A stretch of 64,000 nucleotides of DNA from contig JBAQNU010000024.1 in NCBI GenBank assembly GCA_049304095.1, forward strand, positions 87,644-151,643, given 5' to 3'. Below are positions 4,841 through 56,492 of this stretch, one piece after another; within the stretch, counting starts at the first letter, position 1; every line of letters begins with the position of its first letter. The DNA is from Candidatus Moraniibacteriota bacterium. Lineage in GTDB: Bacteria > Patescibacteriota > Minisyncoccia > Moranbacterales > UBA2206. The translations under genes were made by a program, and so were the position numbers. The notes below the pieces were generated by a model. It was not told the DNA's origin and ran no database searches. It saw only the letters and a program-made list of their open reading frames with translations.

Positions 4841-4846
4841 AGTTAT

Positions 4847-5030
4847 AGAAATTGCGCGTTTACCTTCACAGCTGTATTTTCTAAAAAAATAACTCGAACG
4901 CTCTTTTTTCTTTTCAAAACTTTCCCTCCCTCGACGGCATCCAATGGAAAGTTTTGAAGAAAAAAGGCATTCTCAGACAAGATTTTTTTAGAAAATCCAG
5001 CTGACTCAGGTAAGGGTGCAAGCAAGTCGT
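4847..5030 (+). mobile_element. Copy 2 of the MITE-like repeat, flanked by a perfect 7-bp direct repeat gagttat (4840-4846 and 5031-5037) that overlaps the stop codons of both convergent flanking genes
   Basis: Conserved core shared with copies 1 and 3. The flanking helix sequence differs from the other copies but keeps pairing through compensatory changes. The minus-strand ORF 4843-5025 is an artefact. Confidence 0.7.
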
Positions 5031-30958: not shown

Positions 30959-30978
30959 AAGATTTATTTAAATAATAT

Positions 30979-31157
30979 AGGAGCTACGCATTTCACCTCG
31001 CAGCCGCATTGACTAAAAAAATAACTCGAACGCTCTTTTTTCTTTTCAAAACTTTCCCTCACTCGGCGGCATCCAATGGAAAGTTTTGAAGAAAAAAGGC
31101 ATTCTCAAACAGGATTTTTTTAGCCAATACGGCTGACTCGGATAAATGCGTAGGTCA
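30979..31157 (+). mobile_element. Copy 3 of the MITE-like repeat, inserted between the parA stop and the parB start
   Basis: Near-identical to copy 1 (same ends aggagnTACGCATTT ... AAATGCGTAgGTC). Degenerate AT-rich flanking repeats (aaataat / aaataaa). Confidence 0.7.
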
Positions 31158-31169
31158 TGAAATAAAAAA

Positions 31170-32102
31170 ATGGCACAAAATTATGGATTAGGTCGGGGAC
31201 TTTCTTCACTTATTCCCCAAAAAGCAAAAAAACTGACTGAACCAGAAGCGGATTTTAATTATTTTGGCTCAGGAAAAAGAGAGGAGAATGATAAGATTGC
31301 ACCAACTAGTGCGCCAAAGTTGATTGAAGACAATGAAGTCGAGATTTCGCGCATCGTGCCCAATCCACATCAACCGCGTTTTCATTTTGATGAAACGAAA
31401 TTGCAAGAGTTGGCCAATTCCATCAAAGAGCATGGCATCATCCAACCGATTGTGGTGAGCAAAAATAATGAAAATAGTTTTGAAATTATTGCCGGGGAAC
31501 GGCGTTTTCAGGCTGCCAAACTGGCGGGACTACTGAAAGTGCCGGTGGTGGTGCGTGATGTAACAGAGCAACAAAAACTAGAGCTGGCGATTATTGAAAA
31601 CATTCAACGGCACGATTTAAATCCAGTGGAAGAGGCCAGATCATATCAAAAACTAATTGATGAGTTTGATTTGAGTCAAGAAGAAGCGGCCACAAAACTT
31701 GGTAAGAGTCGCTCTTCCGTGGCGAATAAGTTACGAATTTTAAGTTTGCCGGTGGAGATTCAAAAAGCGCTGATGGAAGGCAAGATCACCGAAGGTCATG
31801 CCAAGGCAATTCTCGCCATTGAAAACCCCGAAAAGCAAAAAGCGCTATACGAGCTAATTTTGAAAAGTGGTCTGACGGTGCGTCAAACGGAAGAGAAAAC
31901 CAAAGAAGTTTCCGTACGCACACACAAACGCTTAGTCAATGTCGACCCAGAGCAAAAAGCTCTAGAAGACAATCTTTCGCAAGCCCTGAAAACAAAAGTC
32001 AAACTGCAAAAATCCGGCACCGGCGGAAAAATTGTGATTGAATTTTATTCCCAAGAGGAGTTGCAAAGCATCGCAGAGAATATCGAGAGGATTGGGAGAT
32101 AA
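31170..32102 (+). CDS. parB: Chromosome partitioning protein ParB/Spo0J
   Basis: ParB box IIAGERRFQAAKLAG and HTH domain. Confidence 0.85.
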   Translation: MAQNYGLGRGLSSLIPQKAKKLTEPEADFNYFGSGKREENDKIAPTSAPKLIEDNEVEISRIVPNPHQPRFHFDETKLQELANSIKEHGIIQPIVVSKNNENSFEIIAGERRFQAAKLAGLLKVPVVVRDVTEQQKLELAIIENIQRHDLNPVEEARSYQKLIDEFDLSQEEAATKLGKSRSSVANKLRILSLPVEIQKALMEGKITEGHAKAILAIENPEKQKALYELILKSGLTVRQTEEKTKEVSVRTHKRLVNVDPEQKALEDNLSQALKTKVKLQKSGTGGKIVIEFYSQEELQSIAENIERIGR

Positions 32103-32708: not shown

Positions 32709-32960
32709 GTGCTAATGTCGTGGTATAAAGTAATTAATTATATGCGTAAAATTGATCTAAAAAATGTGGTTTGGAAAGAGGGGGAGTATTATGTTGCCCA
32801 GTGTTTGAACGTGGACGTTTCTAGCTTTGGAACAACCAAAAAAGAGGCACTGTGCGCATTAGACGAAGCACTTGAATTATATTTTGAGGATATAAAAGTT
32901 CCCAAAGTGACTAGCATTGAAAGACCGGAACTTGTCCAAATGTCAATTTGCCATGCCTAA
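32709..32960 (+). CDS. hicB: HicB-family antitoxin (UPF0150, RNase-H-like fold)
   Basis: 83-aa protein with the YVAQCLNVDVSSFGTTKKEALCALDEALELYFE pattern; overlaps hicA by 8 nt (ATGCCTAA). Confidence 0.6.
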   Translation: MLMSWYKVINYMRKIDLKNVVWKEGEYYVAQCLNVDVSSFGTTKKEALCALDEALELYFEDIKVPKVTSIERPELVQMSICHA

Positions 32961-33171
32961 ACTTTATTCATCTTCAGAAATTATCAAAGTCCTGCAAAAA
33001 CGGGGCTTTGTTTATATTTCCCAAAAAGGCAGTCACGCAAAATTTAGAAAAACTGCCAGTCCAACCTTGACAGCGATTGTTCCAGCGGGGAAAAGAGAAA
33101 TTCCTTTTGGAACTTTCAGATCAATTTTGCGTCAAGCTAATCTAAGTGAAGATGATTTTAGGAAAAAATAA
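32953..33171 (+). CDS. hicA: HicA-family mRNA interferase toxin
   Basis: GSHAKFRK...VPAGKREIPFGTFRSILRQANL matches the HicA/YcfA family. Start set to MPKLYSS, overlapping the hicB stop. Confidence 0.6.
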   Translation: MPKLYSSSEIIKVLQKRGFVYISQKGSHAKFRKTASPTLTAIVPAGKREIPFGTFRSILRQANLSEDDFRKK

Positions 33172-33179
33172 TTCCCTGT

Positions 33180-33206
33180 GTCATCCCCGAGAAGTCGGGG
33201 ATCCAG
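33180..33206 (-). repeat. Small GC-rich palindromic element, inverted-orientation variant gtcat-ccccga-gaag-tcgggg-atccag
   Basis: Same flanks (ctggat...atgac) as the elements at 33308-33335 and 55778-55805; the stem sequence differs but pairing is kept by compensatory changes. Confidence 0.6.
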
Positions 33207-33307
33207 GCACCTCAGGTAATAAAAAAAGAAAAACGAGATTTATTAGTTAAGAAATAGAAGTTAGAGGATTTATAATTCGATTGTTTGTAATCTATAGCCA
33301 GTGGAAC

Positions 33308-33335
33308 CTGGATTCCCGCCTTCGCGGGAATGACA
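33308..33335 (+). repeat. Small GC-rich palindromic element ctgga-ttcccgc-cttc-gcgggaa-tgaca
   Basis: 28-nt identical copy also at 55778-55805. Confidence 0.65.
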
Positions 33336-54260: not shown

Positions 54261-54713
54261 ATGTTAAAACAACAGCTACTTGATGAATTAAAAACAGCTA
54301 TGAAATCTGGCGATACCGCCAAAAGGGATGTTCTTCGCATGCTTGATTCAATGATTAAAAACGTTGAGATTGAAAAGCAAAAACGCGAAACAGGACTAAC
54401 TGATGAGGAAACGCTCGAAGTGATTGGTAAGGCCGTGAAACAAAGAAAAGACGCCGCAGCGCAATATTCCGCCGGTGGCAGAGCAGATTTGGCTGAAAAA
54501 GAACAAGCAGAAATTGCAATCCTCTCTGCCTATCTTCCAGCTCAACTGGACGAAGCGACTGTACGCGAAGCTGTGAAAGCGGTGATCGTCGAAACTGGCG
54601 CAACCAGCCCAACTGACATTGGACGCGTAATGGGCGCATCGATGGCAAAATTGAAAGGTCAGGCAGATGGTAATCTGGTGAAAAAAATCGCCGAAGAAGA
54701 ATTAGGAAAATAG
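54261..54713 (+). CDS. GatB/YqeY-domain protein
   Basis: MLKQQLLDELKTAMKSGDTAKRDVLRML matches the YqeY family. Confidence 0.75.
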   Translation: MLKQQLLDELKTAMKSGDTAKRDVLRMLDSMIKNVEIEKQKRETGLTDEETLEVIGKAVKQRKDAAAQYSAGGRADLAEKEQAEIAILSAYLPAQLDEATVREAVKAVIVETGATSPTDIGRVMGASMAKLKGQADGNLVKKIAEEELGK

Positions 54714-54730
54714 AGCCTCAAAAAAAATAA

Positions 54731-54766
54731 CAAAAACCGTTCTTTTTTTAGAACGGTTTTTGTGTT
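54731..54766. terminator. Intrinsic terminator aaaccgttc-ttttttta-gaacggttt followed by a T-rich tail
   Basis: 9-bp stem; A-run before and T-run after (bidirectional shape); follows the yqeY stop. Confidence 0.6.
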
Positions 54767-54777
54767 AATATGGTATT

Positions 54778-55320
54778 ATGAAACGAAAAATATTTATTAG
54801 CATCAATCTAGCAAGCCAAGTCAGGCGACGACTGATCAAAAGTTGTGCGAAATGGCAAACGCTTCCGGTGAAATGGACCAAGGAGGAAAATTTGCACGTT
54901 GAGCTGTTTTTCCTAGGCTACATCGATAATGACGTGGTGGCTGATGCTTGTCAAAAAGTGCAGGAAGCTGTCTGCGACATTGAACTATTTGATTTGGAGT
55001 TTGAAAAAATCATCCTCGCTCCCAGCGCTGAGAATCCACAAGAGTTTCGCGTCATTGGAAAAGCCAGCGAACAACTAAAAACTCTTCGCGAAGCAATTGA
55101 AAAAGAACTGGGAATTTTTATTGTGTCCAAAAAAGTTTTTTCTCCACACATCACTTTGGGGAAAATCCGCAAAGAAAAGTGGGCGGAGCTAGAAAACACG
55201 CCAGAAGTGAACGAAAAAGCCTCTTTCGCCGTCAGTGTCGAAGCTGTGGACATTATGGCCAGTCATTTTGATGAAGGGAAAAATAGTTTTGTTTTGATTG
55301 AGAGTTGTCCTCTGAAATAA
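54778..55320 (+). CDS. thpR: RNA 2',3'-cyclic phosphodiesterase (ThpR/LigT, 2H family)
   Basis: Two HxT/S motifs (HVELFF... and SPHITLGKI). Confidence 0.75.
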   Translation: MKRKIFISINLASQVRRRLIKSCAKWQTLPVKWTKEENLHVELFFLGYIDNDVVADACQKVQEAVCDIELFDLEFEKIILAPSAENPQEFRVIGKASEQLKTLREAIEKELGIFIVSKKVFSPHITLGKIRKEKWAELENTPEVNEKASFAVSVEAVDIMASHFDEGKNSFVLIESCPLK

Positions 55321-55321
55321 T

Positions 55322-56065
55322 ATGAAAATTTTAGGTGTGCGGGTAGATAATCTTTCTCAAAAAGAAATCCTCGAAAAAGTTGAGTGTTTTTTGAATGAAG
55401 AAAAGTTTCATCAGATTGCCACAGTTAATCCGGAATTTATCCTGGAAGCACAAGATAGTCCAGAGTTTAAAAATATTCTCAATAGTTGCGCGCTGAATGT
55501 GGCTGATGGATTTGGTGTTCGCTGTGCTTTTTGGCGCTTTGGTAAACATCTAACAGCTAGGATGACTGGAGCGGACTTGCTACAAGAAATTCTCAAAATT
55601 GCCAATGAAAAAAACCTGAAAGTGTTTTTAGCGATAAATAAAGATGGGCTTAGTAGTTTTGAAGAGATAAAAAAAGCAATCTTGAAAATTTATCCAAAAT
55701 TGCAAATAGAGGGTGCCAGCTTGGATTGCTATTCTCATGAAGACACAAAGCCCATCGCTCATTCTTTGGCATCTACACTGGATTCCCGCCTTCGCGGGAA
55801 TGACAAGTATATACTTTTTTGCAACTTCGGCGCTCCACATCAAGAAATCTTTCTTAATTCTCAAAAAGATGCTACAATACGCCTAGCGATGGGTGTGGGA
55901 GGATCCTTTGATTTTTTGACGGGAAAAGTCAGGCGCGCCCCGGTTTTTATGCGAACAATTGGCCTGGAATGGCTTTGGAGACTTGCTCAACAGCCTAGGC
56001 GTCTGCCAAGAATTCTGCGCGCCACAATTTTGTTTCCCCTGAGGATAATTTTTAATTTCAAATAA
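55322..56065 (+). CDS. WecG/TagA/CpsF-family glycosyltransferase (GT26) carrying an in-frame 9-codon insertion (LDSRLRGND)
   Basis: MKILGVRVDNLSQKEIL N-terminus and NFGAPHQE, GLEWLWRL motifs. The insertion is encoded by the palindromic element at 55778-55805. Confidence 0.8.
   Translation: MKILGVRVDNLSQKEILEKVECFLNEEKFHQIATVNPEFILEAQDSPEFKNILNSCALNVADGFGVRCAFWRFGKHLTARMTGADLLQEILKIANEKNLKVFLAINKDGLSSFEEIKKAILKIYPKLQIEGASLDCYSHEDTKPIAHSLASTLDSRLRGNDKYILFCNFGAPHQEIFLNSQKDATIRLAMGVGGSFDFLTGKVRRAPVFMRTIGLEWLWRLAQQPRRLPRILRATILFPLRIIFNFK
55778..55805 (+). repeat. GC-rich palindromic element ctggattcccgccttcgcgggaatgaca inside the wecG/tagA-family CDS, in frame
   Basis: 28-nt identical to 33308-33335. 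It sits between the conserved IHAS and ILFvnFGAPKQE blocks, where the E. coli WecG sequence (recalled from memory) has no equivalent residues. Confidence 0.6.
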
Positions 56066-56072
56066 AAAAAAT

Positions 56073-56492
56073 ATGACAAAAACAACTAAAATTATTCGCA
56101 CAGTTTATCTCTATATCGCAGCGCTAGTCAGCCTCATTTTTGTAGCAGTCGGGTCTGGAACACTGATTAATACTGCTCTCAAAACCTATGTTTTCCCAAA
56201 AGCAGAAAAAGGCGGTTATGGCCGTTGCAACCAACAGCCTCCAGTCTATGGGCTAGATAATCTCAAAGGAGCAAATCTGACAACCGAAGAACAGAAACAA
56301 CAGGTTGCGAATATGCTTACTGATTATGAAACTTGGAAAAAAGACAATTCTGGCGAAGAATGTCTAAGTGCTGAGAGGCAAAATAATGTGGTAAATGCGC
56401 TCACAATGATTATCATCGCTCTGCCAATTTATTTATTTCATTGGAGGATAATTAAGAAAGAAAAAGAGGAGAAAGAAGAAAAAACAGCCTAA
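56073..56492 (+). CDS. Hypothetical 2-TM membrane protein with K/E-rich C-terminus
   Basis: ORF only. Confidence 0.4.
   Translation: MTKTTKIIRTVYLYIAALVSLIFVAVGSGTLINTALKTYVFPKAEKGGYGRCNQQPPVYGLDNLKGANLTTEEQKQQVANMLTDYETWKKDNSGEECLSAERQNNVVNALTMIIIALPIYLFHWRIIKKEKEEKEEKTA

Follow-up and report, generated by a model that had tools for sequence, protein, structure and literature searches.

The question raised by this locus is whether a GC-rich palindrome read in frame within a conserved gene is a private selfish element of one genome or a member of a repeat family that has already been described. The locus lies in a stretch of 64,000 nt (hereafter, the window) from contig JBAQNU010000024.1 of a Candidatus Moraniibacteriota bacterium, in which the 28-nt sequence CTGGATTCCCGCCTTCGCGGGAATGACA was encountered in exactly two copies, at 33308-33335 between two genes and at 55778-55805 inside a glycosyltransferase gene of the WecG/TagA/CpsF family (GT26; 55322-56065). 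An earlier reading made without database searches (the sequence-only reading) had taken the genic copy for a 27-nt in-frame insertion and had suggested, in this genome, an element family comparable to the Rickettsia palindromic elements (RPEs); this reading was partly supported by our analysis. We consider it likely that the 28-mer is the hairpin described as SRM, NTS, dRS3 or CGTC-1 REP, a putative site of the nuclease Ssn, and that the window carries two non-autonomous pairs of it: a 157-nt intergenic pair (33179-33335) and an old pair of about 81 nt in the GT26 gene (55727-55805).

The two copies were confirmed to be exact matches, and no further copies with up to three mismatches were found in the window (100 dinucleotide shuffles gave 0 matches). 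The 28-mer has the minus-strand reading TGTCATTCCCGCGAAGGCGGGAATCCAG, and its perfect stem (ATTCCCGC/GCGGGAAT) comprises 8 bp rather than the 7 bp first reported, with a 4-nt loop. The inverted variant GTCATCCCCGAGAAGTCGGGGATCCAG at 33180-33206, or 33179-33206 with its T tag base, was also as first described: its flanks are conserved and its stem, which differs from the canonical stem by a compensated pair, still pairs. In a scan for GC-rich perfect hairpins (the window has 40% G+C), all three showed 8-bp stems and 4-nt loops. The single-stranded DNA fold was predicted at -8.7 kcal/mol for the 28-mer (z = -4.2) and at -8.3 kcal/mol for the 33179-33206 variant (z = -4.5), and five of the six hairpin reading frames are free of stop codons. 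Rfam returned no family at the hairpins, the sole match above the gathering score in the window being a tRNA. Because the 64 kb hold only three hairpins at two loci, there is no sign of an expansion in this genome.

These hairpins correspond to repeats that have been named several times. The dRS3 repeat of Neisseria has as its consensus the 20-bp palindrome ATTCCC-N8-GGGAAT, and its copies flank RS units of 50-150 bp, forming NIMEs (Bentley et al. 2007, PMC1797815). This consensus is matched by ATTCCCGCCTTCGCGGGAAT at 33312-33331 and 55782-55801 and is not matched by the copy at 33183 (ATCCCC...GGGGAT); the intergenic unit of the window resembles a dRS3-RS-dRS3 NIME unit. CGTC-1 REPs were defined by a CGTC tag (variants TGTC, CCTC), a stem of 8 bp that begins with AT, a loop of 4 nt and a CCA tail; they mostly form inverted dimers whose arms are 20-100 bp apart (Di Nocera et al., BMC Genomics 2013, PMC3733652). 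All three window hairpins have this structure (TGTC, ATTCCCGC or ATCCCCGA, GAAG, the complementary stem, CCAG), and they form inverted dimers with spacers of 101 nt (intergenic) and 23 nt (genic, with a decayed partner arm). The same survey equated CGTC-1 with dRS3 and with RPE-6 of R. conorii, which makes the proposed likeness to Rickettsia elements an apt one, and described in-frame intragenic CGTC dimers encoding 20-30 residues; the site between convergent genes is likewise shared. It differs from the present case in listing five phyla, with no member of the candidate phyla radiation (CPR) and no dedicated enzyme, and in giving no account of hairpin-family turnover at one orthologous codon or of nested loop insertions.

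NTS is an oriented 28-nt extension of dRS3, CGTCATTCCCGCGMAVGCGGGAATCYRG, that has been generalized as SRM (Ssn-related motif), with one mismatch allowed in the authors' search (Chenal et al., Nat Commun 2025, PMC11893778). The 28-mer matches 27 of the 28 bases of the NTS consensus, the sole mismatch being the first base. The SRM pattern HGTCWYN(0-2)YYVSBRHN(0-5)WNVSBRGN(0-2)RNCYNB gave two matches in the window (null mean 0.09, maximum 1, in 200 shuffles), and the 33179 variant was not among them. The TGTC tag was considered as a CPR-specific trait and rejected, as it was present in 61 of 161 sampled copies from many phyla. The partner of NTS, SsnA, is a single-domain GIY-YIG protein of about 100 residues whose gene is typically flanked by hairpins; it binds the hairpin in single-stranded DNA and cuts nearby, it modulates transformation in N. 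meningitidis, and it has homologs across phyla (PMC11893778). The oriented hairpin, the inverted pairs and the hairpin-ssn-hairpin units of that system were all found again in our comparisons. What differs here is the T as first tag base, the Patescibacteria (CPR) host, the very low copy number and the translation of the genic copy; Patescibacteria and intragenic copies go unmentioned in Chenal et al.

The distribution of the repeat is far broader than the sequence-only reading supposed when it suggested a comparable element family in this genome, for the hairpin belongs to a near-universal named family with a characterized partner nuclease, Ssn. The exact 27-mer GTCATTCCCGCGAAGGCGGGAATCCAG occurred in at least 120 stretches of one-genome-per-species contigs, and the matches listed span more than 15 phyla, their hosts including Proteobacteria, Chloroflexota, Planctomycetota, Nitrospirota, Zixibacteria, Omnitrophota, Gemmatimonadota, Leptospiraceae and a Rickettsia endosymbiont. 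Patescibacteria account for five of the loci listed, Falkowbacteria and Uhrbacteria included, and a loop-degenerate pattern was found in at least 120 stretches of viral contigs. It was noted that one fetched locus (L201, 4525-4661), in a contig labelled 'MAG: Klebsiella pneumoniae' (MAG, metagenome-assembled genome), holds an inverted pair of the exact 27-mer, which we would not have expected in Klebsiella; the contig may be mis-binned.

When pairs spaced by at most 400 nt were examined in the sampled loci, 37 of 40 were tag-outward and three had the opposite order, with spacings clustering at 42-110 nt and 290-366 nt. Pairs of 334-352 nt in L295, L090 and L064 enclose an open reading frame (ORF) for a GIY-YIG protein of about 95-105 residues (PF01541). 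Clustering of the genes neighboring 240 hairpin loci placed no ORF family in more than nine of them; the hairpin-adjacent cluster among those inspected was a small GIY-YIG protein, whose link with the hairpin has already been published. In the reverse direction, 33 GIY-YIG loci were chosen by protein similarity alone, and about 24 of them had hairpins within 150 nt of the gene, with stems that co-vary with protein subtype; typically one hairpin precedes the start by about 17 nt, and a second, inverted, follows the stop at 22-37 nt.

This association extends to Patescibacteria. Ssn homologs from sources named as Patescibacteria group, Paceibacterota, Minisyncoccia and Shapirobacteria are flanked by TGTC hairpins of the families that also occur in the GT26 loop described below. 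In three related Patescibacteria loci, L199 (2461-2838), L361 and L362 (both 1001-1357), an ssn-like gene with TGTC hairpins on both sides occupies the interval from the GT26 gene to gltX; in the window this interval holds a DUF5671 ORF (56073-56492). The GT26 ORF of L199 is some 160 residues longer at its C-terminus, the extension being NUDIX-like by eye. In tblastn searches of the window, Ssn proteins gave matches of E about 0.1 antisense to the conserved GT26 coding sequence at 55692-55763; these were judged to be chance, reflecting a shared GTLY motif.

The intergenic pair is a complete unit of 157 nt, bordered by convergent genes that end at 33171 (+) and 33344 (-), and is laid out as TGTC-hairpin-CCAG, an AT-rich spacer and CTGG-hairpin-GACA. 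From end to end, and at many conserved columns, this unit with its spacer aligns to an element upstream of the GT26 gene of L321. The similarity begins at CTGTGTCAT and ends at ATGACA, beyond which the flanks are unrelated, and no target-site duplication was found at the borders in the window or in L321. Full-length homology, unrelated flanks and the lack of a duplication together are the hallmark of a discrete unit set down in more than one context. The spacer was confined to the window and L321 among all fetched loci. In L321 the annotated protein (P0007) carries a 38-residue N-terminal extension (1031-1140; ...SGTWIPAFAGMTIH, including WIPAFAGMT) that results from reading through the composite element ahead of the true start, an annotation artefact of the kind these repeats typically cause. 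Directly 5' of the window unit, two small overlapping ORFs (32709-33171; 83 and 84 residues) look by eye like a HicB/HicA-type antitoxin-toxin pair.

A classical MITE (a miniature transposable element with inverted repeats) was rejected for this unit: inverted termini of 27-28 nt are present, but there is no direct repeat at its borders in the window or L321. More generally, it is highly improbable that the hairpins are GTAG-tagged REPs or REPINs mobilized by RAYT, an IS200/IS605-like transposase, or the ordinary MITE of a DDE transposon. The logic is indeed shared, in that short, tagged hairpins form inverted doublets that are mostly intergenic and lie between convergent genes, and the REP/REPIN-RAYT system agrees in outline, with a single-copy gene for a hairpin-recognizing enzyme flanked by its own hairpins and many non-autonomous inverted doublets. 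However, the tag is TGTC or CGTC and not GTAG, and the enzyme is a GIY-YIG protein in place of an HUH tyrosine transposase. No RAYT association was encountered here, and neither a dedicated transposase nor a tyrosine transposase has been linked to CGTC repeats (PMC3733652). The neighbor-gene clustering and the absence of a target-site duplication point in the same direction.

Turning to the genic pair, the product of the host gene matched PF03808 (E = 7.5e-35) over profile positions 3-167 of 168, the ORF is intact, and a Candidatus Moraniibacteriota MAG encodes a protein with 100% identity to its 247-residue product. The repeat starts on a codon boundary at 55778 (offset 456 = 152 x 3), and its reading in frame as LDSRLRGND in a WecG/TagA-family gene was thus upheld. 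In alignments of first 40 and then 120 orthologs, the loop between the strand ...IEG and ...ILFCNFGAP was hypervariable, with 14-55 residues, and about one fifth of the orthologs carried CHSRE(S/N)GNPV - spacer - LDSR(L/F)(R/H)GND, complete or partial. The DNA that encodes these two peptides is one hairpin in opposite orientations, so the insert is an inverted hairpin pair of about 81 nt and not a lone 27-mer. Both arms are intact in the orthologs L122 (TGTCATCCCCGCGAAAGCGGGGATCCAG ... CTAGATTCCCGCCTTCGCGGGAATGACC, the left arm reading CHPRESGDPV) and L124, where the stems show compensatory changes (CCTGC/GCAGG and CCCGT/ACGGG). The left arm of the window, 55727-55754, is homologous to the intact arm of L122, and the 27-nt segment first described is the surviving right arm of the dimer. 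The supposedly conserved IHAS block upstream of it in fact reads IAHS, is not conserved, and falls inside the spacer that separates the right arm from the decayed left one.

Five orthologs at 73-93% protein identity (the window, L121, L360, L358 and L359) carry the pair at the same codon position, and in all five the left arm has decayed while the right arm is identical in nucleotides and the adjoining synonymous sites vary. The genic repeat is thus neither recent nor private to this genome. The shared right-arm codons were identical in 8 of 8 columns, compared with 41% of the amino-acid-invariant columns elsewhere in the gene (P about 9e-4); of the left-arm and spacer codon columns, only 4 of 18 were amino-acid-invariant. 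The segment is present in P0002-P0005 and wholly lacking in P0006 and P0007 (74-77% identity), which have a 17-residue loop and no hairpin.

These comparisons bear on the idea that a single 27-28-nt selfish palindrome of a genome-specific family recently jumped into the gene. A genic copy identical at 28/28 positions to the intergenic copy 22 kb away, together with close orthologs that lack the segment, fits such a jump. Nevertheless, we find it very unlikely: the same arm occupies the same codon with the same nucleotides across orthologs at 73-93% identity, 23 nt upstream there is a decayed partner, and the family is pan-bacterial. It is scarcely credible that the stretch is an ancestral coding segment palindromic by chance, or an assembly artefact, as nothing beyond the ORF reading through speaks for this. 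The same 28-mer is also non-coding in the window, and the repeat was found in independent assemblies, among isolate genomes from many phyla, and in more than one reading frame. The sequence-only reading had named, as signs against itself, the same residues in relatives with divergent DNA or a lack of further copies; instead, the relatives' DNA is identical and further copies exist.

We assessed how the protein fold accommodates the repeat. In a phmmer search against solved structures, the GT26 protein aligned to TagA (7mpk, 5wb4), which has HHGYFTEEEENKIIEEINNKGAE opposite the repeat-derived stretch and leaves a gap of 8 residues only. Since TagA has a segment of its own at this site, the repeat largely replaces a canonical segment and is not a pure add-on. 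An AlphaFold2 model built on a 40-sequence alignment had a mean pLDDT of 87.1 and a pTM of 0.85, with residues from about 135 to 162 at a pLDDT of about 48-52 (the blocks covering 141-160 at 48-52) and without secondary structure, flanked by strands at 128-134 and 163-167. The residues derived from the repeat, about 136-161, fall within this stretch. In this model the repeat-coded residues probably form a floppy loop, in keeping with tolerance rather than function.

Ogata et al. (2000; cited in PMC3733652) reportedly found RPE-1 and other Rickettsia palindromic elements in frame in ORFs. RPE-1 has a longer consensus (about 100-150 bp) that is unrelated to the present one, and only RPE-6 and RPE-4 belong to the CGTC superfamily. 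The window element shares with RPEs that a palindrome is read through in frame in a conserved gene, is present in some orthologs and absent in others, and lies in an insertion-tolerant region, here a loop that is predicted to be disordered. It differs in that it replaces a canonical fold segment and is half decayed. No published account of in-frame palindromic elements in the CPR was found in our literature search, which also returned nothing useful on the translated repeat peptides.

The identity of the right arm could also mean that the hairpin is kept for a role in the gene, at the RNA or DNA level, that is independent of any nuclease (mRNA stability, translational pausing or a recombination hotspot), or that the peptide LDSRLRGND itself is needed. 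The absence of right-arm substitutions over five lineages in which flanking synonymous sites vary would fit such a role, as would the compensatory stem changes in L124, and many such repeats have been argued to act as RNA elements (PMC3733652). We regard it as improbable, however, as close orthologs lack the hairpin or carry wholly different hairpin families at the same place, the segment is predicted to be disordered, and its sequence is the universal family consensus rather than anything specific to this gene.

The same loop was encountered in several other states. Other tagged hairpin families also start at this GT26 codon; their first letters are TGTCAT (read CHS...) and their last are ...ATGACA (read ...DDK or ...NDK). 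The loop of L356 is a heterodimer, ATTCCGGA-CTTGA-TCCGGAAT plus ATCCTGAA-ACAAG-TTCAGGAT; that of L357 is a long palindrome whose extended stem is nearly continuous (-31 kcal/mol); and that of L355 is a collapsed single hairpin with both tags, TGTCATTCCCGCGAAGGTGGGAATGACA. The left arm was found in another reading frame in L138, P0096, P0058 and L127 (S-VIPAQAGIQ, S-VIAS...).

Nested mini-palindromes were also noted in the apical loop of the right arm, all at the identical point after CCTTC. These inserts are 30 nt long in L121 and L360 and 21 nt long in L359, and the 30-nt insert was confined to L121 and L360 among all fetched loci. Because this insert is present in L121 (93% identity to the window) and in L360, which is more distant, and is missing from the window, there must have been a precise loss, a conversion from another copy or a parallel gain. 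A candidate conversion donor is the intergenic copy, with its 28/28 identity to the genic arm of the window. The 19-nt core of the L359 insert, CTGCCTACCGGACAGGCAG (read LPTGQAG), recurs identically in L122 and in the GT26 loop of L142/L143, and this mini-palindrome appears to be a separate small repeat family. Its positions are 4352 in L359 (inside the apical loop of the SRM hairpin), 3421 in L142 and L143 (alone in the GT26 loop) and 1908 in L122. In a Shapirobacteria locus (L365, about 920-1000), an SRM hairpin upstream of a GIY-YIG gene holds a nested GC-rich hairpin, CCCCGCTACTGCGGGG, in its loop, the same pattern as in the GT26 loop.

An identical arm across lineages, family turnover at one codon, inserts in the apical loop and an ssn-like gene just downstream in sister genomes would together suggest an actively maintained recombination or conversion hotspot, in which a nuclease drives the diversification of an exposed segment of a cell-envelope glycosyltransferase in the CPR. 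We give this only a small chance of being correct; if true, it would be natural evidence that Ssn/SRM units move or convert.

Under the reading that we prefer, an SRM-type hairpin pair of the Ssn system, such hairpins typically occur as tag-outward inverted pairs that flank an ssn gene or, far more often, enclose only a short spacer. One pair may have entered the GT26 gene in an ancestor of a Moranbacteria-like sub-clade, and its persistence could be due to a length that leaves the frame intact (81 nt, divisible by three, with hairpin frames mostly stop-free) and to its position in a tolerant loop. The intact arm would then have been kept or repeatedly restored at the DNA level, whether by gene conversion, by re-insertion or by selection linked with the Ssn/hairpin system, with extruded hairpin loops possibly serving as entry points for further mini-palindromes.

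Several points weigh against this account. The first tag base is T in the window and C in the published NTS, although the T variant was listed by Di Nocera et al. and is the one carried by the 61 sampled copies noted above. Cleavage by Ssn and its effect on transformation have been published in Neisseria (PMC11893778), but transposition is undemonstrated, and the spread of the hairpins is inferred both in the literature and here. With only three hairpins in 64 kb, and with no ssn homolog (single-domain GIY-YIG, cd10448-type) found in the window by tblastn, activity in this Moraniibacteriota genome is unproven. The nucleotide identity of the right arm may reflect selection, gene conversion or re-insertion alike. 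A left arm in another frame means that more than one event must have happened, which counts against a single origin, and the neighbor-joining tree behind our judgement of patchiness, single origin versus repeated insertion, is crude.

The features that make up the two pairs are listed in Table 1.

Table 1. Coordinates of the genic and intergenic hairpin pairs and of the host gene in the window.
Feature	Position	Strand	Reading or basis
Intact right arm of intragenic dimer, TGTC-ATTCCCGC-GAAG-GCGGGAAT-CCAG (tag, 8-bp stem, 4-nt loop, tail)	55778..55805	-	plus strand reads LDSRLRGND, GT26 residues 153-161
Decayed left arm of intragenic dimer, TGCTATTCTCATGAAGACACAAAGCCCA, reads CYSHEDTKPI	55727..55754	+	protein and DNA alignments
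Spacer between intragenic arms, 23 nt, reads ...AHSLAST	55755..55777	+	DNA views of orthologs
Host gene, WecG/TagA/CpsF (GT26) glycosyltransferase, 247 residues	55322..56065	+	PF03808 match
Left arm of intergenic composite, TGTC-ATCCCCGA-GAAG-TCGGGGAT-CCAG	33179..33206	+	hairpin scan, fold, comparison with L321 copy
AT-rich internal spacer of composite, 101 nt	33207..33307	.	full-length alignment to L321 element
Right arm of intergenic composite, identical to genic copy	33308..33335	-	exact match, SRM pattern

Other repeats were also observed in the window. An intergenic repeat of 180 nt occurs in three copies that are 87-94% identical (2403-2582, 4845-5024 and 30977-31156); it is a long imperfect inverted repeat, and the differences in the 4845 copy are apparently compensatory. 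Two of its copies lie just upstream of plus-strand genes, the gene at 31170 being ParB-like by eye, and no Rfam family was found for it, only sub-threshold long-hairpin matches. A perfect AT-rich hairpin of 13-14 bp, ACAAAAACCGTTCTTTTTTTAGAACGGTTTTTGT, at 54730-54763 between an ORF ending at 54713 and a LigT-like ORF starting at 54778, looks like an intrinsic terminator.

A seemingly private selfish palindrome is thus read as one of the most widespread bacterial hairpin repeats, with a partner nuclease that was characterized in 2025. The Ssn/SRM system extends to the reduced genomes of Patescibacteria, a group unmentioned in both reference papers, and its hairpins can be retained for a long time as translated sequence within a GT26 gene that is otherwise conserved, as in Rickettsia. 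To what is known of the family, this locus adds a new host lineage, an intragenic hotspot in which families turn over, and insertions nested in hairpin loops. For annotation, there is a warning that LDSRLRGND, WIPAFAGMT, VIPAKAGIQ, SFPRRRESS and CHSRESGNP are translated hairpins, and that they can give rise to spurious N-terminal extensions such as that of P0007. For the biology of the family, decay, collapse, family replacement and nested insertion can all be read side by side in one orthologous loop, which offers a natural data set on the spread and homogenization of SRM hairpins.

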